A stretch of DNA of 64,000 nt from Oscillospiraceae bacterium (GTDB lineage Bacteria; Bacillota; Clostridia; Oscillospirales; Oscillospiraceae). This document shows positions 53,573-64,000 of this stretch, one piece after another. Numbering within the stretch: the first letter of the stretch is position 1; the number at the start of each line of letters is the position of its first letter. The stretch spans positions 2,129 to 66,128 of the forward strand of contig JAFXXH010000017.1 in NCBI GenBank assembly GCA_017542425.1, written 5' to 3'. The translations under genes and the position numbers were made by a program. Under the pieces are notes generated by a model, which saw only the letters and a program-made list of their open reading frames with translations, did no database searches and was not told the DNA's origin.

Positions 53573-54262
53573 TTAAAATAGTGTCGCGCCCAGGGAAGCG
53601 CCCCACTCCGCCAAGGGCCACAGGCGCAGATAGCACCACTCCACCGCAGCGGAGAGCGGCCCGCCCAGCACGCCGCTGAGGGAGAGGGCGATCAGCACAA
53701 TCATCCCGTAGCGCTCATAGCGCATCAGCTTCTCATAGGCCTGGTCGCTGAGGAAGGCGAACAGCACCTTGCTCCCGTCCAGCGGGGACACGGGCAGCAG
53801 GTTGAAAATCGCCAAGGCCAGGGAGAGCTGCGCCGTCACCATCAGGGTGTCCGCCGCAAAATCCGCCAGCGCCGTCCCCGCCCGGTAGAGCGGCAGGGCA
53901 AAGAGGCCGTAGAGGAACAGCGTCAGCGCCGTCAGCAGCAGATTGCTGAGCGGTCCGGCCAGAGCCGTCAGGGCCATGTCCCGCCGGGGATTGCGGAAGC
54001 GGCGCATATCCACAGGCACCGGCCTGGCCCAGCCGAAGCCCACGGCCACCATCATCAGCGTCCCCAGGGGGTCAAAGTGGGCCAGCGGGTTCAGCGTCAG
54101 TCGCCCGGCGCGCCTGGCCGTGTCGTCCCCCAGGCGCCAGGCGGTCAGGCCGTGGCACAGTTCGTGGACCGTGATGCAGACCAGGGCCGGGAGGATGCGC
54201 AGCAGAATGTCCGTCAGCACCGACCAGTCCAGGCCGTTCCAAAAGGTTTGAAAGCTCGTCAA
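53573..54262 (-). CDS. site-2 protease family (M50) membrane metalloprotease
   Basis: HELCHGLTAW HExxH motif inside a TM helix, multi-pass hydrophobic profile, and a later NLLPVSPLDG motif. The track gives a TTG start. Confidence 0.88.
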   Translation of the reverse strand: MTSFQTFWNGLDWSVLTDILLRILPALVCITVHELCHGLTAWRLGDDTARRAGRLTLNPLAHFDPLGTLMMVAVGFGWARPVPVDMRRFRNPRRDMALTALAGPLSNLLLTALTLFLYGLFALPLYRAGTALADFAADTLMVTAQLSLALAIFNLLPVSPLDGSKVLFAFLSDQAYEKLMRYERYGMIVLIALSLSGVLGGPLSAAVEWCYLRLWPLAEWGASLGATLF

Positions 54263-54349
54263 AGCGAATACACCTCACAGATTGTTTCATTATAACAAAG
54301 GCGCGGACAAAACGCAAGGCGGCAAAAAAGCAAATTCCGGGCGAAGGCG

Positions 54350-54398
54350 GAAAAGAGCAGGGACGACTCCGGGCTGTTCCCGGAGCGTCCCTGCTCTG
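54350..54398 (-). terminator. rho-independent terminator ending the feo operon
   Basis: Minus strand reads AGAGCAGGGACGCTCCGGG-AACA-GCCCGGAGTCGTCCCTGCTCT followed by TTTCC. Confidence 0.75.
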
Positions 54399-54414
54399 TC
54401 GCTTCTGTTCCGTT

Positions 54415-54588
54415 TCATTTCGTGTCCGCGCCCTTGCCGCATCCGCCGCAGGCGGCGCAATCACAGCCGCAGGAAGCGTTCCCCGCTTTTTTGTCGCGGC
54501 GCATGGCGCGGAACACCAGGCCCACGACCAGCACGAGGACGGCGACCAGCACGAGATTGATGAGATTGGCGGAAAGCCAGGCCAGCAT
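54415..54588 (-). CDS. FeoB-associated Cys-rich membrane peptide (57 aa)
   Basis: Own translation: MLAWLSANLINLVLVAVLVLVVGLVFRAMRRDKKAGNASCGCDCAACGGCGKGADTK. It has one TM helix plus a CxC/CxxC tail directly downstream of feoB. It falls below the size cutoff of the ORF track, and the 174-aa track ORF here is in a different frame. Confidence 0.75.
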   Translation of the reverse strand: MLAWLSANLINLVLVAVLVLVVGLVFRAMRRDKKAGNASCGCDCAACGGCGKGADTK

Positions 54589-54672
54589 AGAATCACATCC
54601 TTTGCAAAAGCTGGCGGCGCTGCGGGGGCAGAGGGATATTCCCCCGCAGCGCCGCCGATGGAAAGAAAACGC

Positions 54673-57021
54673 TTACTTCACGGTCAGCTTCTGGGCCTCC
54701 TTGTAGGGCTTGAAGAGCTGCCACAGGAGCAGACCCAGCGCAATCAGCGCCAGAATCAGGCCGACGACGTTCACGCCGCCCACGAACACCCGGCCGATCT
54801 GCCAGACCAGGAAGGCGATCACCCAGGCAAAGCCGCACTGGTAGCCGATGGCGAACCAGGTCCACTTGCGGCTGTTCATCTCCCGCCTGATCGCGCCGAT
54901 GGCCGCGAAACAGGGGGCGCAGAGCAGGTTGAAAATCAGGAAGGCATAGGCGGCAAGTCTGCCGTGGCCGCCGGAGATGGCGTTGAAGTCCTCCGCCACG
55001 TTCTCCCAGATCTGGTCGCCGTTTTCCTCCAGCTCCTCCAGGATGGGTTCGCCGGTCTCCTCGTCAAAGAGCGGTTCGCCGGTCTCCTCGTCCACGGCCT
55101 GCTCGGCCCTGGCGTCGAAGTTGTACATGATTCCGAAGTTGGCCACGACCTCCTCCTTTGCCACCAGGCCGGTGACCGTGGCGGCAGTGGGCTTCCAGTC
55201 GCCGAAGCCCAGGGGCTTGAAGACGATGGAGACGGGCTGGGCCACGCGGGCCAGGATGGAATCGTCCATCGGCTCCACCTCGTCCTCGGAGATGCCCATA
55301 CGCTCGGCCACGATGGCCACATATTCGTCGGTGACCAGGCTGTCATCCTCATAGAGCTCGTCCACCATGCCGAATCTGCCGTTGACGGAGCCGAAGCTGG
55401 TCAGGAACCAGATCACAATGGAGGAGACCACGATGACGGTCCCGGCGCGCTTGATAAAGCTCCAGCCGCGCTCCCAGGTGCCGCGCAGGACGTTGCCCCA
55501 GGCGGGGGCGTGGTAGGCGGGCAGCTCCATGACGAAGGGGGCGGGGTCCCCGGCAAAGCGCTTCGTCTTCTTCAGCATGATACCGGAGATCACAATGGCA
55601 GCCACGCCGATGAAGTAGGCGGAGGTGGCGACCAGGGTGCTGCCGCCGAACAGCGCGCCCGCGATCAGGCCGACGATGGGCATTTTCGCCCCGCAGGGCA
55701 TGAAGGTGGTGGTCATGATGGTCATGCGGCGGTCACGCTCGTTTTCAATCGTGCGGGAGGCCATGACGCCGGGGATGCCGCAGCCGGTACCCACCAGCAT
55801 GGGGATGAAGCTCTTGCCGCTCAGGCCGAAGCGGCGGAAGATGCGGTCCATGATGAAGGCGATGCGCGCCATGTAGCCGCAGTCCTCCAGCAGGCAAAGC
55901 ATCAGGAACAGCACCAGCATCTGGGGCACGAAGCCCAACACCGCGCCCACGCCGGCCAGGATGCCGTCGGAGATCAGACCCACCAGCCAGGGGGCGGCGT
56001 TCCAGCTCTCCAGGATGGCGCGGGAGCCGTCGGTCAGCCAGGCCCCGCCCAGCACGTCGTTGGCCCAGTCGGTCAGGAAGGTGCCGATGGAAATGCCGCC
56101 GTCGGCGATGGAGGTGCCCATGGACAGGGCGTAGACCAGGAACATGACTCCGATGAAAATCGGCAGCGCCAGGATGCGGTTGGTGACGATCTTGTCGATC
56201 CGGTCGGAGGTACTCTGTTTGGTCCTGTTCTTTTTCTGATAGCACCCGCGCATCAGGCCCGCGATGTAGATGTAGCGCTCGTTGGTAATGATGCTCTCCG
56301 CGTCGTCGTCCAGCTCCCGCTCCGCCGCGGCGATATCCTGTTCGATATGTGCTTTGATCCCGTCGCTGAGGGCCAGCTTGCTCTGGACCTTTTCATCCCG
56401 CTCGAAGAGCTTGACGGCATACCAGCGCTGGCGCTCCTCCGGCATGTTGTGGACCGTAATCTCCTCGATGTGGGCCAGGGCGTGCTCCACCACGCCGGAA
56501 AAGCTGTGCTGGGGCACGGTCCTCGGCCCCTGGGCGGCCTCCACGCAGGCGCGGACCGCCGCGTCGATCCCCTCGCCCTTGAGCGCGGAGATCTCAACAA
56601 TCCGGCAACCCAGGGCGCGGCCCAGTTCCTCCGTGTGGATGGTGTCGCCGGACTTGCGCACCAGGTCCATCATGTTCAGGGCAATGACCACGGGGATGCC
56701 GATCTCCACCAGTTGGGTGGTCAGATAGAGGTTGCGCTCCAGATTCGTGGCGTCGACGATGTTCAGCACCACGTCGGGCTGTTCGTCGATCAGATAGTTC
56801 CGGGCCACGACCTCCTCCAGCGTGTAAGGGGACAGAGAGTAGATGCCGGGTAGGTCCGTGACGGTCACGTCCTTCTGGCCGCGCACGCGGCCCTCCTTCT
56901 TCTCCACCGTCACGCCGGGCCAGTTGCCCACATACTGCTGGGTCCCGGTCAGCGCGTTGAACAGCGTCGTCTTGCCGCAGTTGGGGTTGCCGGCAAGGGC
57001 GATGCGAATTCCAGTTTTCAT
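54673..57021 (-). CDS. feoB: ferrous iron transporter FeoB
   Basis: IALAGNPNCGKTTLFNALTG G1 motif, DLPGIYSL, NMMD, and a large gate-motif-containing polytopic membrane domain. Confidence 0.97.
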   Translation of the reverse strand: MKTGIRIALAGNPNCGKTTLFNALTGTQQYVGNWPGVTVEKKEGRVRGQKDVTVTDLPGIYSLSPYTLEEVVARNYLIDEQPDVVLNIVDATNLERNLYLTTQLVEIGIPVVIALNMMDLVRKSGDTIHTEELGRALGCRIVEISALKGEGIDAAVRACVEAAQGPRTVPQHSFSGVVEHALAHIEEITVHNMPEERQRWYAVKLFERDEKVQSKLALSDGIKAHIEQDIAAAERELDDDAESIITNERYIYIAGLMRGCYQKKNRTKQSTSDRIDKIVTNRILALPIFIGVMFLVYALSMGTSIADGGISIGTFLTDWANDVLGGAWLTDGSRAILESWNAAPWLVGLISDGILAGVGAVLGFVPQMLVLFLMLCLLEDCGYMARIAFIMDRIFRRFGLSGKSFIPMLVGTGCGIPGVMASRTIENERDRRMTIMTTTFMPCGAKMPIVGLIAGALFGGSTLVATSAYFIGVAAIVISGIMLKKTKRFAGDPAPFVMELPAYHAPAWGNVLRGTWERGWSFIKRAGTVIVVSSIVIWFLTSFGSVNGRFGMVDELYEDDSLVTDEYVAIVAERMGISEDEVEPMDDSILARVAQPVSIVFKPLGFGDWKPTAATVTGLVAKEEVVANFGIMYNFDARAEQAVDEETGEPLFDEETGEPILEELEENGDQIWENVAEDFNAISGGHGRLAAYAFLIFNLLCAPCFAAIGAIRREMNSRKWTWFAIGYQCGFAWVIAFLVWQIGRVFVGGVNVVGLILALIALGLLLWQLFKPYKEAQKLTVK

Positions 57022-57254
57022 ATGCCGCTCCTTTCCTCCACTTCGATCATTTCCGCGTCGGCCTTGCGGATGGACAGCTCATAGCCCCGCACGTTCACCT
57101 CCACCGGGTCGCCCAGCGGGGCCAGCTTGCGGACGTAGATCTCTACGCCCTTCGTAACGCCCATGTCCATGATCCGCCGCTTGACCGCGCCCGCGCCGTG
57201 CAGCTTCACGACCCGGACGGTCTCGCCGACTTTCGCGTCTCTGAGTGTTTTCAT
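57018..57254 (-). CDS. feoA: FeoA domain protein
   Basis: LRDAKVGETVRVVKLHGAGAVKRRIMDMGVTKGVEIYVRKLAPLGDPVEV is an SH3-like FeoA domain. AAAGGAG RBS. It overlaps feoB by 4 nt. Confidence 0.9.
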   Translation of the reverse strand: MKTLRDAKVGETVRVVKLHGAGAVKRRIMDMGVTKGVEIYVRKLAPLGDPVEVNVRGYELSIRKADAEMIEVEERSGI

Positions 57255-57284
57255 CCTCATCGCTCCTTTTCGATTCAAATTGGA

Positions 57285-57497
57285 TCAGACCATGATCTTC
57301 CCGGCCATTTCGCGGCTGAGGGCCACGCGGGACTCCTTGACCTTGACGATCAGGTTCCCGCCGATGGTATTCAGCACCGTGACGGTCCCGCCGACGACAA
57401 AGCCCATGTCCTCCAGGTGCTTTTTCAGCTCCGGCGTCCCGCCCAGGCGCAGGATGACGGCTTCCTCCCCCGCCCCCGACAGATACAGCGGCATCAT
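57285..57497 (-). CDS. feoA: FeoA domain protein (second copy)
   Basis: MMPLYLSGAGEEAVILRLGGTPELKKHLEDMGFVVGGTVTVLNTIGGNLIVKVKESRVAL, with a [14 protein letters not shown]. Confidence 0.88.
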   Translation of the reverse strand: MMPLYLSGAGEEAVILRLGGTPELKKHLEDMGFVVGGTVTVLNTIGGNLIVKVKESRVALSREMAGKIMV

Positions 57498-57562
57498 CGC
57501 TTTTCCCCCCTCCTTGCACCGTGCCACAGAATTAAATGAAACTAACTTGCGATTCGGCAAAA

Positions 57563-57580
57563 GGTTAGGTTCTCCTAACC
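57563..57580. promoter_or_regulatory. DtxR-type iron-box-like operator in the feoA 5' region
   Basis: Perfect inverted repeat GGTTAGG-TTCT-CCTAACC. It resembles the DtxR/IdeR consensus TTAGGTTAGCCTAACCTAA and starts 8 nt downstream of the -10. Confidence 0.65.
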
Positions 57581-57587
57581 GTCTGGG

Positions 57588-57616
57588 AGTTTAACATACT
57601 TAACTCTTGTTGTCAA
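57588..57616 (-). promoter_or_regulatory. sigma-A promoter of feoA-feoA-feoB
   Basis: Minus strand reads TTGACA-17 nt-TAAACT. Confidence 0.6.
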
Positions 57617-57692
57617 GAGCGAACTTCCCTGCACTTTGATTTTTCTTGCTTTTTGCATATTTTTATGGTAATCTTTTCAGCAGGTGATGAAA

Positions 57693-58061
57693 ATGACGAT
57701 CCATGAATCCGCAGAAAACTATCTGGAAGCCATGCTGATGCTCAAGGAGGAGCGGGGCTACATCCGCTCCATCGACGTGGCGGAAAAGCTGGGCGTAACC
57801 AAGCCCAGCGTCAGCTACGCAACCAAACGCCTGCGGGAGAGCGGCTATATCACGCTGGACCCGGCGGGGATGATCGTGCTGCTCCCTCCGGGGCTGGAGA
57901 TCGCGGAGCGGATTTACGAGCGCCACAAGCTCCTGACCGAACTGTTCATCGGCCTGGGCGTCAACCCGGAGACCGCCCGGCAGGACGCCTGCAAGATCGA
58001 ACACGACCTGAGCGTGGAGACCTTCGAGGCCATTCGCAGACATGCCCAAATGTACCGCTGA
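57693..58061 (+). CDS. DtxR/MntR family metal-dependent transcriptional repressor (no SH3-like C-domain)
   Basis: SAENYLEAMLMLKEERGYIRSIDVAEKLGVTKPSVSYATKRLRESGYI is a winged HTH. ERHKLLTELF...DACKIEHDLS is the dimerisation/metal-site region. The start was set at the ATG 5 nt after AGGTGA. Confidence 0.9.
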   Translation: MTIHESAENYLEAMLMLKEERGYIRSIDVAEKLGVTKPSVSYATKRLRESGYITLDPAGMIVLLPPGLEIAERIYERHKLLTELFIGLGVNPETARQDACKIEHDLSVETFEAIRRHAQMYR

Positions 58062-58081
58062 GCTTTCTCACACATGCAAGT

Positions 58082-58120
58082 CCTCCGATCTGCGCGGAAG
58101 CCGGATCGGAGGGCTTTTCG
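58082..58120 (+). terminator. rho-independent terminator after the dtxR-like gene
   Basis: CCTCCGATC-loop-GATCGGAGG followed by GCTTTTCG. Confidence 0.6.
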
Positions 58121-58163
58121 TCTCGGCGGAAAAAAAAGTCTTTTCAAACGGGAACAGATGTGC

Positions 58164-58192
58164 TATCATCAGCAATTAGATAAGCCTAACTT
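58164..58192 (+). promoter_or_regulatory. -10 element (TATCAT) plus an iron-box-like operator upstream of the HMA gene
   Basis: TATCAT at 58164-58169, then AATTAGATAAGCCTAACTT at 58174-58192 (imperfect TTAG..CTAA palindrome). The geometry matches that at feoA. Confidence 0.5.
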
Positions 58193-58222
58193 CTGGAAAC
58201 GAGCTTTGGAAAGGTGAGACAC

Positions 58223-58474
58223 ATGATCAAGACCACAGTGAAAATCGACGGCATGATGTGCCCCATGTGCGAGGCGCATATCAGCGAGGCGATCCGAAAG
58301 GCGATCCCCTCCGCCAGGCAAGTCAGCGCCAACCGGCGCAAGGGGGAGGCGGTGTTCCTGACGGAACAGGCCGTGGACGGAGCGCTGCTGCGACAGGCCA
58401 TTGACGCCACAGGCTACCGCTGCCTGGGCGTGGAATCGGCGCCCCACGAGAAGAAGCGCTGGTTTCAAAAATAA
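58223..58474 (+). CDS. heavy-metal-associated (HMA, CopZ-like) domain protein
   Basis: MIKTTVKIDGMMCPMCEAHISEAI carries the GMxCxxC metal-binding motif. It is about 83 aa with a ferredoxin-like beta-alpha-beta-beta-alpha-beta pattern. Confidence 0.88.
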   Translation: MIKTTVKIDGMMCPMCEAHISEAIRKAIPSARQVSANRRKGEAVFLTEQAVDGALLRQAIDATGYRCLGVESAPHEKKRWFQK

Positions 58475-58483
58475 ACACGAAGG

Positions 58484-58527
58484 CCGCACAATTCTGACTG
58501 CGCGATGGGCATGTCAGAACTGTGCGG
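58484..58527. terminator. hairpin between convergent genes (possible bidirectional terminator)
   Basis: CCGCACAATTCTGAC-14 nt-GTCAGAACTGTGCGG. The U-tracts are weak on both strands. Confidence 0.5.
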
Positions 58528-58544
58528 TTTCGTATGGACAGGTC

Positions 58545-60104
58545 TTATCTCCTGGCCTGGCTCAAAGCGGCGCGGACGGCGGCGCGCAGGCCCTCGGAAG
58601 AATAGGTCGCGCCGGAAACGCCGTCCACATTCGGCGACTGCGCGGACAGCATGGCGGCGATCATCCGCGCACCGTCTGCGCCGGGGTCGAAGTAATCCAC
58701 GTCATCCTTGAACGCAGTGATGCGGATGTCCACAATGCGGTCGTCCCGGATGGTCACGGATACGGCCACGTCTCCGGCCGTACCCAGGTTTCCGACGCCG
58801 GATCCGCTGTAGGTCCCGTCCTGATAGACCCGGACAGGCGTGGGCTCGGGGGTGGGCACCGGAGTCGGCTCCGGCGTAGGTTCGGGCGTAGGTTCCGGAG
58901 TCGGCTCCGGGGTGGGTTCCGGGGTGGGCTGCTGCGTCGGTTCCGGCGTCGGTTCCGGCGTCGGGGTGGCTTGCGCCGTGGGCTGCGGCGTCGGTTCCGG
59001 CGTCGGCTTCGGTGCCGGTTTCGCCGTGGGTTCGGGCGCGGCTGCGGTCTCCGGTTCCGGCGTCGGCGCTGACGTGGCCGTGGGTTCCGGTTCCGGCTGC
59101 GCTTCTCCCTTTGCTTCCGGGTCCGGGGATGGGCTTGAGACGGACGCGGTGGGCGTCACTTCCGGCGTCAAGTCGGGCTCCGGCGTGGACGACGCGTCCG
59201 TGCTTTCCGGCGCGGGCGGTGGTGACGGCAGAGACTCCGTTGCTTCCGAGGCCTCGGACGCCGAGAGCGGTTCCGTGGAGACGGCCGCTGCGGAAGCCCC
59301 TTCCCCGTCCTGCGCCTCTCGCGCTGCGGAAACCGCCAGCGTCAATGCCGCAGCGAGCAGCAGCGCAAAGAAAAGGGCGACCAGCTGGCGGCGCGCCAGC
59401 CCCGTTTCGCTCTGCCGACGGCGGGCCAGCGCTTTCAGAATCCGGCAGGCGGCGTAAGCGACGAAGATCGCGGTGTAGACGAACACGGTCAGTCCGTAAC
59501 CGAGACGGCCCCGCAGCGCGTTGGGGATGGTCAGCAGCAGGATGTGGAGGCAAAGCAGGGCATAGAACAGATAGGCCCAGCGCTGCAGGCGTTTCCAGGC
59601 TTTTGGCCGCATCTTTTTTCGGACAGCAGGGAAGCTGGTGATCCACAGCGGCAGCATCACCAGATCCATGACGACGGAGCAGAGGGCCGCCAGCAGCGTC
59701 GCTGTGGGCAGGCTGGCGGCGTCCGTAAACAGCAGGACGAAATAGGTCTTGCCGTACGCCACGTTGTGGGCAAGGGTGAAAATCCCGGCCAGAATGGACA
59801 GAGGCCCGCGGACGGGCATCAGCGTTCGCGCTCCCCTGGAACCGTTGGGGAAGGCTCCGGCCACCATCACCAGCACAAACAGCGCACCCGCCAGCGCGCC
59901 CCGGGCGAAAATGGGCCAGATCCAGCTGTTGACAAAGGCCGGGAAGCGGACCCCGGCAAAGGCGCAGACCACGACGGCAAGGGACAGCAGCGCGGCACAG
60001 AGATAAAACGGCCCCGGCGCGGTCCGCAGCTGCTTGCCCAGCAGTAGCACCAGCAGCAGCGCCAGGGCGAGAGAGATCAGAAAAACCAAAGACGGCACCT
60101 CCAT
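58545..60104 (-). CDS. ferric-reductase-like transmembrane domain fused via a Pro/Thr/Glu linker to an extracytosolic FMN_bind domain
   Basis: The N-terminal ~230 aa form six TM helices with His in TM segments (FTLAHNVAYG, ALLCLHILLL), as in YedZ/MsrQ/FRD proteins. A ~170-aa (PEPT)n-rich linker follows. The C-terminus GTYSGSGVG...VDGVSGATYSSEG is an FMN_bind domain with the canonical flavinylation site. The start may instead be the TTG at 60089, which follows GGAGG. Confidence 0.88.
   Translation of the reverse strand: MEVPSLVFLISLALALLLVLLLGKQLRTAPGPFYLCAALLSLAVVVCAFAGVRFPAFVNSWIWPIFARGALAGALFVLVMVAGAFPNGSRGARTLMPVRGPLSILAGIFTLAHNVAYGKTYFVLLFTDAASLPTATLLAALCSVVMDLVMLPLWITSFPAVRKKMRPKAWKRLQRWAYLFYALLCLHILLLTIPNALRGRLGYGLTVFVYTAIFVAYAACRILKALARRRQSETGLARRQLVALFFALLLAAALTLAVSAAREAQDGEGASAAAVSTEPLSASEASEATESLPSPPPAPESTDASSTPEPDLTPEVTPTASVSSPSPDPEAKGEAQPEPEPTATSAPTPEPETAAAPEPTAKPAPKPTPEPTPQPTAQATPTPEPTPEPTQQPTPEPTPEPTPEPTPEPTPEPTPVPTPEPTPVRVYQDGTYSGSGVGNLGTAGDVAVSVTIRDDRIVDIRITAFKDDVDYFDPGADGARMIAAMLSAQSPNVDGVSGATYSSEGLRAAVRAALSQARR
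58832..59260 (-). repeat. in-frame low-complexity tandem repeat encoding the (PEPT)n / Pro-Thr-Glu-Ala linker
   Basis: Plus strand shows reiterated GGTTCCGGCGTCGG / GGCTCCGG units. Translated on the minus strand this gives PTPEPTPEPTPEPTPEPTPEPTPVPTPEPTP and degenerate copies. Confidence 0.9.
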
Positions 60105-60112
60105 GTTCCAGG

Positions 60113-60153
60113 ATAAAAAACACCGGGGACGCCCGACGGGCGGACGACCCCGG
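60113..60153 (-). terminator. rho-independent terminator after the SLH surface-protein gene
   Basis: Minus strand reads CCGGGGTCGTCCGCCCGTCGGGCGTCCCCGG followed by TGTTTTTTAT. Confidence 0.8.
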
Positions 60154-60176
60154 CCAAAAAGGAGAAGTGGGAAAAC

Positions 60177-62255
60177 TCAGCTTTGTGGATCAGACCGCGC
60201 CGTTGCATAGAGCAGGGACACGATCTCGGCGCGGGTGTAGGGCGTCTCGGCCCGGAAGCTGCTTCCGGCTTCGATCAGGCCCTTCTCCGCCGCCCAGGAG
60301 GCGGCGTCACGGTACCAGGCCTCGGGCTTCACATCGTCAAAGGCCTTTTGCGCGGCGGGGGCGGGCCGTCCTTCGGCTTTCCAGAGGACGCCGATGATCT
60401 GTGCGCGGTCCACGGTCTGCATGGGGCTGAAGCGGTCCGCGCCCGTGCCGTCGATGATGCCGTTTTCAACCGCCCAGAGGACCGCTTTACAATACCAGTC
60501 GTCCTCCCGGATGTCCGTGAAGGGGGTTTCGACGGATTCAGGCTGCGGCTGTCCGGCGCGTTTCCAGAGGAAGGTGACCAGAGTCGCCCGGTTTACGGTC
60601 AGTTCCGGGGAGAAGGTCCCGTTTCCGGTTCCGCTGGTGACGCGGTTTTTCCTGGCCCAGATCAGCGCCTCGGCATAGTCGGCGTCCTTCGGCACATCGT
60701 AGTATCCGGTGGCCCCCAGGTCCGCGATGGCGATCTGCACCGGGAAATCCAGCACGGCAGACGGGGTGTAGTAGCGGATGTTGGTAATCGTTTTTCCGTC
60801 GATGGCCGCCAGCGGCTCGTCCAGGTTCCAACCCAGCTCCGTGGCCCGCCAGATGTTCGTCACATGGCCCATGCCGTATTTCGCGCCGTCCTCGGTGGTC
60901 AGCACCACAGCGCTGACGGCGTCGCCTTTGGCGATCCCCTCCGTGCCTTCCAGTACCATTTCAATGGAAGTGTGCCGTCCGTTGTAGGTCACGGTGGCGC
61001 TGACACCTTCCACCGTTGCGGCGCGCCCGCCCACTGCGGAGAAGCGGAAGCCGCCGTCCTCCGCCACGGAGAGCGTCTTGTACTTTGCGGGCTTCTCCGA
61101 CAGCGCATACCAGGCATGGTCCGGGGCTTCAAACAGAGAATCCCTGCCCGCATAGGTCGCGGTATTCGTCTGGCCGCGGGCGCTGGTGGTGATCTCCACG
61201 CTGCGTGCGTCGGTGACCTCCAGCGCAGCATCCAGCATATCCAGATCCGGGACGAACACAGGATAGCTGACGCCGTCTACGCCGTCGCCCTCCGCGCTGA
61301 CATGATAGGAGCCGGAGGCCAGGCCTCCGTTGCTCCGTTTGTTTTTGGTGGCCGCGCTGACCGCGTCCGGCGCGTCCGCTTCGCCCAACTCTGCGGCGTA
61401 GAATTCGGCGTAGGGGATGTTCATTTGGACATAGCCTGCCTTACCGATGGTCAACTGAACCGGATAGTCCAGAATGGCGTCACGGGTATAGTATCGAATG
61501 TTGGTGAGCGTCTTTCCGGCGAGCCCTGCGGCCCCTTCGTCCAGGTTCCAGCCCAGCTGCGTCCCGCGCCAGATGTTATAAACGTGGCGCAGCCCGTATT
61601 GGCTGCCGTCGGAAGCCGTCAGCACCACGCCGCTGACAACGGTATCCGCCGCGATGGCGGCTGTGTTTTCCAGAACGATTTCGATGTCTGTATGCCGTCC
61701 GCCCATCGTCAGCGTGGGGACGACGCCCTCCTGTGTGGAAGCCGCGCCGCGCACAGCGGAAAAGCGCAGCGCGCCGTTCGTGACGGAGAGTTCTTTGTAA
61801 CAGGCGGGCCTTTCTTTCAACACATAGTAGGAGTAGCTCGGAGCCTCAAACAACGCATCCGCGCCCTCATAGACGGTGGTTCTCTCCTGACCCCGGTTCA
61901 CGACGGTGATCTCCACGCGGGCCGTATCGTCCAGGCGGTTCAGCCCCGCCAGCGCCGCAGAGTCCTTGACAAGCACGGGATAGATGACGCCGCTGATGTC
62001 ACTGCCGTCAGCATTGACGTGGTAGGAGCCGCCGGCCAGCGTACCCGTCCTGGGCTTATTCAGCGTAGAGGAACTTACGGCGTCCACGGCCTTGTCCGTT
62101 TCGCCCAGTTCCGATGCATAAAAGTCGGCGTAGGGGATGTTCATCAGGACATAGGTCTCTTCCGCCGCCAGCGCCGCAGACGGCAGCGCCCCGATCAGCG
62201 TCAGCAGGCAGAGCAGCAGTCCCAGCGTTTGTCTGAGCTTTTTCACATTCATCAT
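60177..62255 (-). CDS. cell-wall-anchored (3x SLH) surface protein with two tandem copies of an unassigned ~240-aa domain
   Basis: Signal peptide LGLLLCLLTLIGALPSAALA. Copy A spans aa ~38-278 and copy B aa ~279-519, sharing MNIPYA(D/E)FYA.ELGE, DAVS..T, SGSYHV, RHT.IE.VLE, NIWR.T.LGWNLDE and TNIRYYT. Three SLH modules lie at aa ~522-690. The start was set at ATGATG after GAGGTG. Confidence 0.88.
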   Translation of the reverse strand: MMNVKKLRQTLGLLLCLLTLIGALPSAALAAEETYVLMNIPYADFYASELGETDKAVDAVSSSTLNKPRTGTLAGGSYHVNADGSDISGVIYPVLVKDSAALAGLNRLDDTARVEITVVNRGQERTTVYEGADALFEAPSYSYYVLKERPACYKELSVTNGALRFSAVRGAASTQEGVVPTLTMGGRHTDIEIVLENTAAIAADTVVSGVVLTASDGSQYGLRHVYNIWRGTQLGWNLDEGAAGLAGKTLTNIRYYTRDAILDYPVQLTIGKAGYVQMNIPYAEFYAAELGEADAPDAVSAATKNKRSNGGLASGSYHVSAEGDGVDGVSYPVFVPDLDMLDAALEVTDARSVEITTSARGQTNTATYAGRDSLFEAPDHAWYALSEKPAKYKTLSVAEDGGFRFSAVGGRAATVEGVSATVTYNGRHTSIEMVLEGTEGIAKGDAVSAVVLTTEDGAKYGMGHVTNIWRATELGWNLDEPLAAIDGKTITNIRYYTPSAVLDFPVQIAIADLGATGYYDVPKDADYAEALIWARKNRVTSGTGNGTFSPELTVNRATLVTFLWKRAGQPQPESVETPFTDIREDDWYCKAVLWAVENGIIDGTGADRFSPMQTVDRAQIIGVLWKAEGRPAPAAQKAFDDVKPEAWYRDAASWAAEKGLIEAGSSFRAETPYTRAEIVSLLYATARSDPQS
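60711..62156 (-). repeat. internal tandem duplication (two ~720-nt domain-coding copies)
   Basis: The protein-level repeat described above gives copy A at about 61434-62156 and copy B at about 60711-61433. The copies have diverged (roughly half the residues identical by eye), so the duplication is not recent. Confidence 0.8.
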
Positions 62256-62287
62256 AACACCTCTCATTCTGGATTTGTTATCAGCCG

Positions 62288-62311
62288 CTAACGTTAGTTA
62301 GACTAATCTAA
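62288..62311. promoter_or_regulatory. iron-box-like operator(s) in the 5' region of the SLH surface-protein gene
   Basis: CTAACGTTAG is a perfect 10-bp palindrome. It overlaps TTAGTTAGACTAATCTAA, which is close to the DtxR consensus half-sites. The site lies about 16 nt downstream of the -10. Confidence 0.6.
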
Positions 62312-62328
62312 TCACGGCGACGTGTTGG

Positions 62329-62357
62329 AGTATAACAGCAACGCGCAGAAATGTCAA
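62329..62357 (-). promoter_or_regulatory. sigma-A promoter of the SLH surface-protein gene
   Basis: Minus strand reads TTGACA-17 nt-TATACT. Confidence 0.6.
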
Positions 62358-62373
62358 TCCCCAAATTTCCAGC

Positions 62374-62403
62374 TTGACAAACAAAACACCGCGGATTTAC
62401 AAT
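62374..62403 (+). promoter_or_regulatory. sigma-A promoter of apbE
   Basis: TTGACA-18 nt-TACAAT, arranged back-to-back with the divergent promoter (the -35 boxes are 16 nt apart). Confidence 0.6.
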
Positions 62404-62416
62404 AAATCATACGGGA

Positions 62417-62434
62417 AGTTAGTTTTTTCTAACT
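62417..62434. promoter_or_regulatory. iron-box-like operator upstream of apbE
   Basis: Perfect inverted repeat AGTTAG-TTTTTT-CTAACT between the -10 and the RBS. Confidence 0.6.
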
Positions 62435-62456
62435 CTTGAAAAAAGGAGGGGATGGA

Positions 62457-63491
62457 ATGCGACGGGCCGCCTGCCTTCTCTGTCTCAGCTTTCTGCTGCT
62501 GAGCGGCTGCGGCGGGAACTCCGCTTCCACCGCGCCCACGGAGCGGGAGCGCAGTTTCTTCGCCATGGATACCTATATGAGCATTCGCGCCTTTGGGGCG
62601 GAGGAAGCGCTGCTGGAGCGTGCGGAGGCCGCAGTCACGGATCTGGAGCGGCGCATCTCCGTCACGGACCCGGACAGCCAGATCGCCGCGCTGAACCGCA
62701 ACGGGACGGGCACGCTGGACGCGGAGACGGCGGAGCTGCTGCGCCGGGGTCTCGCGCTCTGCGCGGAGACGGGCGGGGCGCTTGATCTCAGCGTCTATCC
62801 GGTGCTGCGGGCCTGGGGCTTCACCACAGGCGACTACCGCGTCCCCGCCCCGTCGGAGCTGGAAGCGCTGCTGACGCTGGTGGACCATCGCCGGGTGAAG
62901 CTGAACGAGGCCGGAACCGTGTCGCTTGACCCGGGGATGCAGCTCGACCTGGGCAGCGTGGCCAAGGGGTATGTGGGAGACAAGCTCTGCGCCCTGCTGC
63001 GCACCGGCGGCGTGAATAGCGCCCTGTTGGATCTGGGCGGGAACGTACAGGCGCTGGGCGGCAAGCCGGACGGAAGCGCCTGGCGCGTGGGCATCCGGGA
63101 CCCCCAGGGCGCGGGGCTGCTGGGCGTGGTCTCCGTCCGGGACTGTGCGGTGGTCACATCCGGCGGCTATGAGCGCTATTTCCTGGACGCGGACGGGACG
63201 GTCTATTGGCACATTCTGGACCCCGCCGACGGGATGCCCGCGAAAAACGGCCTGATCTCCGTCACCGTCGTGGGGACGGAGGGCCTTCTCTGCGACGCGC
63301 TCTCCACCGCGCTGTTCGTCATGGGCACGGAGCGGGCGGCGGACTACTGGCGCGCCCACGGGGACTTTGAACTGGCGCTGGTCACGGAGGACGGCAGACT
63401 GCTGCTGACGCCTGGCTTGGCGGAGGGTTTCACCCCGGCGGAGGGCCTGAACTATCGGATCGAGACGCTGGAGCGGGAGGGCGCGGCATGA
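62457..63491 (+). CDS. apbE: FAD:protein FMN transferase (ApbE family) lipoprotein
   Basis: Lipobox LLLSGCGG. ApbE motifs FAMDTY, DLGSVAKGY, TSGGYERYF, HILDP and [21 protein letters not shown] lies before the ATG at 62457; the track starts at an upstream TTG. Confidence 0.93.
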   Translation: MRRAACLLCLSFLLLSGCGGNSASTAPTERERSFFAMDTYMSIRAFGAEEALLERAEAAVTDLERRISVTDPDSQIAALNRNGTGTLDAETAELLRRGLALCAETGGALDLSVYPVLRAWGFTTGDYRVPAPSELEALLTLVDHRRVKLNEAGTVSLDPGMQLDLGSVAKGYVGDKLCALLRTGGVNSALLDLGGNVQALGGKPDGSAWRVGIRDPQGAGLLGVVSVRDCAVVTSGGYERYFLDADGTVYWHILDPADGMPAKNGLISVTVVGTEGLLCDALSTALFVMGTERAADYWRAHGDFELALVTEDGRLLLTPGLAEGFTPAEGLNYRIETLEREGAA

Positions 63492-64000
63492 CGAAGCGCA
63501 TCACCCACGCGGCGCTGCTCACGGCCCTGGCGCTGATCATCTTCGTGCTGGAGGCGCAGATCCCGCCGCCCGTCCCGATCCCCGGCCTCAAGCTGGGTCT
63601 GGCCAACATCATCACCGTGTACGCCATGTTCCGGCTTGGGCCAAAGGACACGCTGGCGATCCTGCTCTCGCGCATCTTCCTGGGCAGCGTGTTCGCGGGC
63701 GCTGTCAGCGCCATGCTGTTCTCTCTGGCGGGCGGGCTGCTGTGCTATCTGCTGATGCTGCCGCTGCGGCGGCTTCTGAGCCTGCGTCAGATCTGGGTCT
63801 GCGGCGTGTTGGGCGCGGTGGCGCACAACCTGGGCCAGACCGCCGCCGCGATTTTGATCTACCGCACGTTTGCCGTCGCCTTTTATCTCCCGGTGCTGCT
63901 GCTGAGCGCCGTCGTCACCGGGACCCTCACGGGGCTGAGCGCACAGTACGTCGTGCGCCGCATGGAGCAAAGGGAGCAGAACAGGTCGGACATGGAAAAA
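63488..64000 (+). CDS. Gx transporter family membrane protein (formerly 'heptaprenyl diphosphate synthase component I'-like); the 3' end is beyond the window
   Basis: Own translation: MTKRITHAALLTALALIIFVLEAQIPPPVPIPGLKLGLANIITVYAMF...GAVAHNLGQTAAA. The ATG overlaps the apbE stop (ATGA). There is no in-frame stop before 64000. Confidence 0.8.
   Translation, partial: MTKRITHAALLTALALIIFVLEAQIPPPVPIPGLKLGLANIITVYAMFRLGPKDTLAILLSRIFLGSVFAGAVSAMLFSLAGGLLCYLLMLPLRRLLSLRQIWVCGVLGAVAHNLGQTAAAILIYRTFAVAFYLPVLLLSAVVTGTLTGLSAQYVVRRMEQREQNRSDMEK

Follow-up and report, generated by a model that had tools for sequence, protein, structure and literature searches.

The 189-bp gap at positions 62268-62456 of a 64-kb stretch of DNA from an Oscillospiraceae bacterium (contig JAFXXH010000017.1; the whole stretch is referred to below as the window) separates a minus-strand gene for an SLH-domain surface protein of 696 aa from a plus-strand apbE gene, and it raises the question of whether these two genes belong to the same metal regulon as the feoA-feoA-feoB operon located nearby. 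A first-pass annotation had proposed that the flavin transferase ApbE and the surface protein are co-repressed by the metalloregulator that controls feo, and the comparative evidence collected here supports this proposal. In our reading, to which we assign a probability of roughly 0.7, the gap contains two divergent promoters whose leaders carry putative binding boxes, each for one dimer of a DtxR-family regulator, most likely the 125-aa protein encoded adjacent to feoA, which would repress four transcription units. Both the operator and the type of regulon are already known, and the novelty lies in the targets, namely apbE, an MsrQ-like/FMN_bind reductase gene, and a surface domain without annotation. 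Our literature searches yielded no description of the clostridial regulator, of its box, or of the surface domain, and an earlier description elsewhere (e.g. in regulon databases) is possible. The genome has a G+C content of about 65%, and it is most closely related to uncultured Oscillospiraceae and to other Clostridia of rumen and gut.

Divergent promoters and TTAG-N6-CTAA boxes

A promoter scan of positions 54000-64000 returned five sites in these 10 kb vs 1.3 expected, and the top two matches were the promoters of the apbE/SLH gap, each agreeing with the sigma-70 consensus at 11 of 12 positions. On the minus strand, the SLH-operon promoter consists of a -35 element TTGACA (62352-62357) and a -10 element TATACT (62329-62334) with a TG extension, separated by a 17-nt spacer. 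The apbE promoter on the plus strand combines TTGACA (62374-62379) with TACAAT (62398-62403) across an 18-nt spacer. The gap between the two -35 hexamers is 16 nt (62358-62373), which confirms the back-to-back consensus promoters described by the first-pass annotation. With spacers in the range of 16-18 nt and conservation in orthologous regions, these elements can be classified as predicted divergent promoters of the sigma-70 type. The apbE start codon is ATG 62457, and not TTG 62436 as had been assumed; the start of the SLH gene is amended to ATG 62255, which is preceded by GAGAGG and is the most likely initiation codon as judged by the sequence and the alignment of orthologs.

The pattern TTAG-N6-CTAA has four exact matches in the window (57565, 58176, 62298, and 62419) vs 0.06 expected, and four matches were reached in none of the 100 whole-window shuffles. 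All four boxes are located 6-17 nt 3' of a promoter-like -10 element and 5' of the ribosome-binding site (RBS), in the leaders of feoA, the small HMA-domain gene, the SLH gene, and apbE, in agreement with the four related palindromes between -10 and RBS that had been reported earlier. The predicted operator in the apbE leader, AGTTAG-TTTTTT-CTAACT, occupies 62417-62434, and its core (62419-62432) spans roughly +9 to +22 on the inferred transcript. The proximal operator of the SLH leader, TTAGACTAATCTAA (62298-62311), lies within the palindrome TTAGTTAGACTAATCTAA (62294-62311), and a distal degenerate box GTTATCAGCCGCTAAC with one mismatch is found in this leader at 62277-62292. The feoA-leader operator GGTTAGG-TTCT-CCTAACC (57563-57580, core TTAGGTTCTCCTAA) follows the promoter TTGACA(57616)-17-TAAACT(57588), and a possible second box ATTAAATGAAACTAAC (57531-57546), degenerate with two mismatches, lies 33 bp from the exact one. 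The HMA-leader operator TTAGATAAGCCTAA (58176-58189) is located 6 nt after the -10 element TATCAT (58164-58169). The extended consensus of the boxes is (G/A)GTTAG-N6-CTAAC(C/T).

Surface-protein orthologs with 70-83% identity were located on their contigs, and L084 (with its duplicates L085 and L086), L087, and L088 show the divergent layout, in which apbE is oriented away from the SLH gene and from the MsrQ-like/FMN_bind gene that follows the latter; P0004 has the apbE/SLH layout of the window as judged by gene order only. Phylogenetic footprinting, which the first-pass annotation had set as a test, gave a positive outcome. Across the aligned intergenic regions of the four lineages, both -35 hexamers (including GCTTGACAA on the apbE side), the GTTAG and CTAAC arms of the apbE leader, and the distal GTTA...GCTAA of the SLH leader are invariant, and the 4-6 nucleotides between the arms vary by lineage (TTTTTT, TTATTA, CGTTTG, CAAAAG). 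The -10 element of apbE is identical in L088 and L084 and reads TAGAAT in L087, and the A(G/T)TATA core of the SLH -10 element is kept in all three. Two perfect GGTTAGC-N4-GCTAAC(C) boxes at a distance of 34 bp are found in the SLH leaders of L084 and L087, and those of the window and L088 carry one exact and one degenerate box. L088 has TTAGATATCTCTAA at the position aligned with the proximal box of the window, and the distal box of the window aligns with the distal GGTTAGC-N4-GCTAAC of L084 and L087. In the latter two contigs, the box starts 8-10 nt past the -10 hexamer. The palindromes quoted in the first-pass annotation are all present, among them CTAACGTTAG at 62288-62297; as a separate operator, this last element was rejected for its lack of conservation in L088, L084, and L087, and its CTAA half belongs to the distal box.

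Boxes also precede members of the surface-protein family that are found outside the apbE/SLH layout. In L081, an AraC-type gene stands in place of apbE, and boxes are located 5' of both the AraC gene and the surface-protein gene. Four further contigs (L089, L090, L091, and L092) encode surface-protein homologs that are 42-63% identical, one of them an FMN_bind fusion, with one to three boxes no more than 150 bp upstream of the gene; their genomic contexts vary, e.g. an enolase gene as neighbour, or an operon of SLH, NusG_II, Hpre_diP_synt_I, and apbE genes. Altogether, 1-3 upstream boxes were present at all five of these loci (5/5). Given a background of about 1.3e-5 boxes per bp, the presence of a box in each lineage examined rules out chance.

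The scan of the genome collection with the regulator produced 80 loci (59-89% identity), which contain 67 boxes vs 14.8 +/- 3.6 expected. At least one box within 900 bp upstream of the regulator gene was found at 26 of the 31 loci where this gene is divergent from feoA(-feoA-feoB), vs 4 of the 49 other loci. Boxes 5' of the regulator gene also occur without feoA (L022, L052, L060, L064), and the HMA orthologs of L006, L012, and L084 have upstream boxes. The flank bases outside the search pattern are kept as well, with G at -1 and C at +1 in 85-93% of sites. The start-to-start spacing of adjacent boxes is 33-35 bp in 12 of 27 pairs and exactly 34 bp in eight of them (e.g. L002 9851/9885, L084 9873/9907, L087 9874/9908). 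In L084, boxes (568, 1628, 1849) are also located before a ZIP-family transporter gene and an operon of HMA, DUF6110, and P-type ATPase genes, and the regulon in this lineage thus extends past iron-specific genes.

The regulator, its metal, and alternative explanations

The presumed repressor is encoded on the plus strand (57684-58061) beside feoA, 4.3 kb from the apbE/SLH intergenic region. This two-domain protein of 125 aa matches the N-terminal winged-helix family PF01325 (Fe_dep_repress; 50.5 bits, cut-off 26) and the metal-binding/dimerisation family PF02742 (Fe_dep_repr_C; 47.4 bits, cut-off 27), both above the cut-off, and we assign it to the DtxR/MntR family. Alignment with MntR and DtxR gives N12, E15, H81, C103, E106, and H107 as its ligands. 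The set [D/N]-E-H-C-E-H was found in 80 of 80 homologs, and the recognition helix TKPSVSYATKRLR is unchanged in most of them, with one to few substitutions in the rest. According to this alignment, the metal site is MntR-like except for Cys in place of Glu99, a position equivalent to C102 of DtxR/IdeR. Among the primary-site ligands of IdeR/DtxR (Met10, Cys102, Glu105, His106), the last three are present as C103, E106, and H107, and Asn12 is found instead of Met10. The protein belongs neither to the DtxR equivalog, since it ends at residue 125 without an SH3-like domain (NF053665, 29.8 bits vs a cut-off of 290), nor to the MntR subfamily (Asp8, Glu11, His77, Glu99, Glu102, His103), from which it departs by the Cys at Glu99 in all 80 homologs; it also stays below the NCBIfam MntR cut-offs (NF008273, 91.8 vs 153; NF003025, 72.7 vs 138). 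Sulfur ligation by a Cys at the IdeR C102 position has been linked to a preference for Fe(II) over Mn(II) (PMC11672702). Because of this sulfur ligand and of feoAB as the most conserved target, we favour Fe(II) over Mn(II) as the signal by about 4 to 1, a likely and not a certain assignment.

In the mechanism that we propose, one metal-loaded dimer, with Fe(II) as the most likely corepressor, would be seated at each box on or just past the transcription start, and would block initiation or promoter escape at both divergent promoters as well as at the feoA and HMA promoters. The repressed units would be (i) feoA-feoA-feoB, (ii) the gene for the small HMA-domain protein, (iii) the SLH surface-protein gene together with the gene for the MsrQ-like/FMN_bind membrane reductase, and (iv) apbE and the gene of the Hpre_diP_synt_I-family membrane protein that is linked to it. 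Under metal scarcity, all four units would be derepressed together, yielding an Fe(II) importer, an extracytoplasmic flavin transferase, a flavinylated membrane reductase, and a wall-anchored surface protein, i.e. the set that a reductive iron-uptake route would need.

In several relatives, a second DtxR-family paralog (about 42-47% identity) has the same TTAG-N6-CTAA box in its own promoter (L001 19679-20077, L003 1325-1735, L006 6823-7239, L007 4925-5374; helix TKPSVS(R/K/N)A(V/M/L)K). The arrangement is suggestive of a small regulatory cascade like that of TroR and Idr in Haloferax. The window contains no second DtxR-like gene and no paralog of any cluster gene.

A number of observations weigh against the proposed iron-dependent regulon. 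The closest solved structures of the regulator are those of MntR (2h09 at 6.8e-18; 1on1 at 6.6e-14), its closest characterised relatives are the Mn(II) sensors MntR of E. coli and B. subtilis, and its ligand set is a hybrid, in which the MntR-type Glu is combined with Asn12, or Asp in most homologs, at the position of DtxR Met10. In relatives with the box-bearing second paralog, either protein may bind a given site. No ApbE, SLH-protein, or FMN_bind homolog was found within 10 kb of the regulator at any of the 80 loci, and the regulator genes were not seen on the L081-L092 contigs, where their co-occurrence is assumed. In the window, the SLH and HMA boxes have one imperfect flank each, and the apbE and SLH boxes, at +9 to +24, are slightly farther downstream than in L084 and L087. 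Finally, a terminator-like hairpin at 60121-60138 makes the co-transcription of the reductase gene with the SLH gene uncertain. Since the feo/regulator and apbE/SLH blocks are adjacent only in the lineage of the window and in none of the 80 relatives, the proposed functional link between them is based on the shared operator and not on synteny; the earlier argument for the block as one functional system finds no basis in conserved gene order.

The only serious rival explanation retains the same architecture and the same regulator, with Mn(II) or another divalent metal as the corepressor; this would be a manganese or general-metal regulon, with the Feo-like transporter and a ZIP transporter as importers of Mn. 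It is in line with the best matches of the regulator to MntR structures and NCBIfam MntR models, with the presence of Asn/Asp in place of Met10 and of the MntR-specific Glu, and with the box at the ZIP transporter gene in L084. However, the homologs uniformly have the IdeR-type Cys at MntR Glu99, the NCBIfam MntR scores are far under the cut-offs, and the most conserved target is feoAB, the others forming a ferric-reductase-like flavinylated system. Moreover, the box is the IdeR/TroR iron box and not the SirR/MntR-type TTTwGA-N4-TCwAAA, and neither mntH nor mntABC was seen among the targets. We therefore regard a manganese-responsive regulon as unlikely.

It is improbable that the boxes are bound by another transcription factor, the DtxR-like gene being located nearby by accident. 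Binding by the DtxR-like protein is predicted from sequence, and the apbE/SLH block is unlinked to this regulator in relatives, as such an explanation would have it, but the association of boxes with the regulator (26/31 vs 4/49 loci), their location before both the regulator gene and its paralog, and the exact match to two experimentally defined DtxR-family sites argue for a DtxR-type operator. Still less credit can be given to the palindromes as 5'-leader RNA hairpins affecting mRNA stability or translation. All boxes would be transcribed, being located between the -10 element and the RBS, and stems of 6-7 bp are possible for the feoA and apbE boxes, but the four leaders show no folding advantage over shuffled sequences (z = -0.83, -1.31, -0.51, and +0.40), the HMA and SLH boxes have 4-bp A/U-rich arms only, the arms are invariant, without covariation, across lineages and paralogous sites, and no Rfam family reached the gathering score in the whole window. 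A chance cluster of A+T-rich palindromes in the intergenic DNA of a G+C-rich genome, which could appeal to the fact that this DNA is A+T-richer than the whole-window shuffles used as null for the four observed vs 0.06 expected boxes, is refuted by the comparative data, i.e. by boxes kept at every homologous locus examined, conserved flanks, and the 34-bp preference in tandem spacing.

Flavinylation genes and the surface domain

The predicted DtxR-type regulon of the window includes the minus-strand feoA-feoA-feoB operon (54673-57497), with two FeoA genes (57285-57497 and 57018-57278) and FeoB (54673-57021), and a plus-strand gene (58214-58474) for a small protein with a CxxC motif, in which a domain search identified HMA. 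ApbE is a flavin adenine dinucleotide (FAD):protein flavin mononucleotide (FMN) transferase and lipoprotein encoded on the plus strand (62457-63491; PF02424 at 3.7e-82; lipobox LLSGC). The gene for the Hpre_diP_synt_I-family membrane protein (63488-64000, plus strand) overlaps the apbE stop codon and continues past the window end. A gene of this family is also linked to apbE, with or without a NusG_II-domain gene, in L084, L087, L088, and L092, and it is our guess that its product might supply flavin to the extracytoplasmic ApbE.

The membrane protein of 519 aa encoded on the minus strand (58545-60104) has an MsrQ/ferric-reductase-like transmembrane part at its N-terminus, which a Pro/Thr/Glu-rich linker connects to a C-terminal FMN_bind domain (3.2e-11) with the flavinylation motif VDGVSGATY (SGAT). 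An ApbE of predicted extracytoplasmic location is thus accompanied by a partner with the [S/T]GA[S/T] motif in an FMN_bind domain, and this domain, encoded downstream of the SLH gene, is by its motif the clear predicted ApbE substrate. The first-pass annotation had named the SLH protein as the putative substrate; that protein has a flavinylation-like motif only. Residues 108-226 of the 519-aa protein match the C-terminal region of MamZ at 4.2e-7. PF01794 (Ferric_reduct) gave no match in the window protein even at E <= 10, and a weak match in its L084 ortholog; the transmembrane part bears a weak predicted resemblance to the ferric-reductase/MsrQ family. The linker (58700-59400, minus strand; residues ~255-430) comprises about 170 residues very rich in Pro, Thr, Glu, and Ala, with repeated PEPT/PTPE units, a length that may allow the flavin domain to traverse the cell wall and approach the SLH-anchored protein. 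A 72-bp gap separates the reductase gene, for which neither an RBS nor a promoter of its own is obvious, from the SLH stop codon, and it holds the G+C-rich hairpin mentioned above (minus strand) and then TTTTTT. This hairpin may act within the operon as a partial terminator or attenuator that sets the product ratio, the reductase gene being expressed at a lower level via read-through.

The SLH surface protein (60177-62267, minus strand) has a signal peptide, two copies of an unannotated domain of about 250 aa, which make up its N-terminal two-thirds (60660-62171), and three SLH repeats. The ~250-aa repeat has no Pfam family (matches at E <= 10 were noise only), and the profile search of PDB sequences matched the SLH part of the protein and not the repeat. 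Its AlphaFold model has a predicted local distance difference test score (pLDDT) of 82.7, with a low-confidence loop at the flavinylation-like motif, and the Foldseek comparison of this model with PDB gave nothing below E = 0.026, the top template modelling (TM) scores being about 0.3 or less and belonging to generic Ig/FN3 sandwiches. The repeat-domain family comprises 667 clusters at 50% identity (in 1.84 billion representatives); a single protein contains up to five copies, and fusions to FMN_bind, Big_2, DUF1533, or SLH modules are frequent. Its invariant residues include Y39, Y46, F49, Y50, E53, D62, T68, K71, S81, Y82, H83, H192, H228, and W233, and it carries a YxxFY motif. The flavinylation-like motif D-A-V-[ST]-S-A-T resembles the ApbE target [S/T]GA[S/T]; in the SLH protein of the window, it reads DAVSSST and DAVSAAT, and Thr68 and Thr307 are invariant in 16 homologs. 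Among 210 copies of the domain, the motif is mostly TSAT or SSAT, and the canonical SGAT was found three times.

Every locus with a repeat-domain homolog that we examined (L081, L084, L087-L092) has an upstream DtxR-type box, and this steady placement marks the repeat domain as a metal-regulated surface module. A family of large unannotated surface proteins, common in gut and rumen Clostridia, would be a conserved target of a DtxR-type repressor, which points to metal acquisition. As a tentative and rather doubtful extension of this idea, the repeat might be a new iron-regulated extracellular module of Clostridia, flavinylated by ApbE or binding ferric iron or haem, that forms with the MsrQ-like/FMN_bind reductase a wall-spanning reductive iron-uptake chain feeding FeoB.

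Comparison with known systems

IdeR binds half sites as one dimer, and a 14-bp single-dimer consensus TTAGGNNNNCCTAA has been proposed for IdeR/DtxR (Marcos-Torres et al. 2021, PMC8464063); the full iron box of actinobacterial IdeR/DtxR is the 19-bp TTAGGTTAGSCTAACCTAA (PMC8464063). The half-site TTAG-N6-CTAA of the window is identical in sequence and spacing, with the feoA box matching TTAGGNNNNCCTAA exactly and the other three boxes matching its core, and the location of these boxes at promoters of metal-homeostasis genes qualifies them as predicted single-dimer operators of the IdeR/DtxR type. A metal-loaded repressor would act on iron-uptake genes in both cases, and the window regulator shares the Cys/Glu/His primary-site ligands. 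In contrast to IdeR/DtxR, it lacks the SH3-like third domain and Met10, its boxes are single-dimer sites, often in tandem about 34 bp apart, instead of a pair of overlapping boxes with a 5-bp offset, base 5 is not G-biased, a conserved extension runs outward (GGTTAG), and the host is a Clostridia-type Firmicute. The single-dimer concept of the IdeR half site would hereby be extended to a two-domain, Cys-containing, MntR-like subfamily, which could aid the study of Fe/Mn selectivity determinants; the regulatory principle itself is standard.

The regulator resembles MntR of B. subtilis and E. coli in its two domains, in size (about 125-155 aa), and in the ligands Asp/Asn, Glu, His, Glu, and His, whereas it differs in the Cys for Glu99 and in its predicted targets, which are feoAB and the flavinylated reductase system and not mntH/mntABC. 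In Haloferax volcanii, the TroR motif TTTAGGC-N3-CCTAAA obtained by chromatin immunoprecipitation sequencing (ChIP-seq) occurs in tandem about 30 bp apart, and TroR represses iron uptake under iron-replete conditions (PMC10783522). This motif contains the TTAG-N6-CTAA core, and its tandem arrangement recalls the 33-35 bp spacing observed here; however, the system is archaeal, its sites are located in archaeal promoters about 100 nt upstream of start codons, and the likeness noted here is one of motif.

In Bifidobacterium breve, iron limitation induces sifABCDE, a cluster that includes an FMN-binding predicted ferric reductase, and mutation of apbE confers sensitivity to a ferrous-iron chelator, in a study that read ApbE as an Fe-S cluster factor (PMC5449479). 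An FMN-binding, ferric-reductase-like protein and apbE are shared with our locus, where the link to iron is predicted, whereas the transporter (an ABC system in B. breve) and the regulator differ, and no SLH surface protein is present there. For clusters with MsrQ-like proteins, apbE, and FMN_bind, a role as assimilatory iron reductases has been suggested (Meheust et al. 2021, PMC8238504). They combine apbE with an FMN_bind protein, as in the window, and with a membrane protein with a ferric-reductase domain (PF01794-like), to which the transmembrane part encoded in the window bears the weak resemblance described above. The published clusters are mostly actinobacterial, often have an NAD-binding domain, and are VIT1-linked. 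Here, in contrast, the transmembrane part and FMN_bind are fused, PF01794 is weakly detectable, and the reductase is paired with an SLH-anchored protein of unannotated domain and tied to feoAB via the shared operator. Cross-lineage sequence comparison thus places a flavinylation system (ApbE and the MsrQ-like/FMN_bind reductase) in the same predicted metal regulon as Feo in Firmicutes, and with defined promoters and operators it makes the published iron-assimilation hypothesis for flavinylation systems directly testable.

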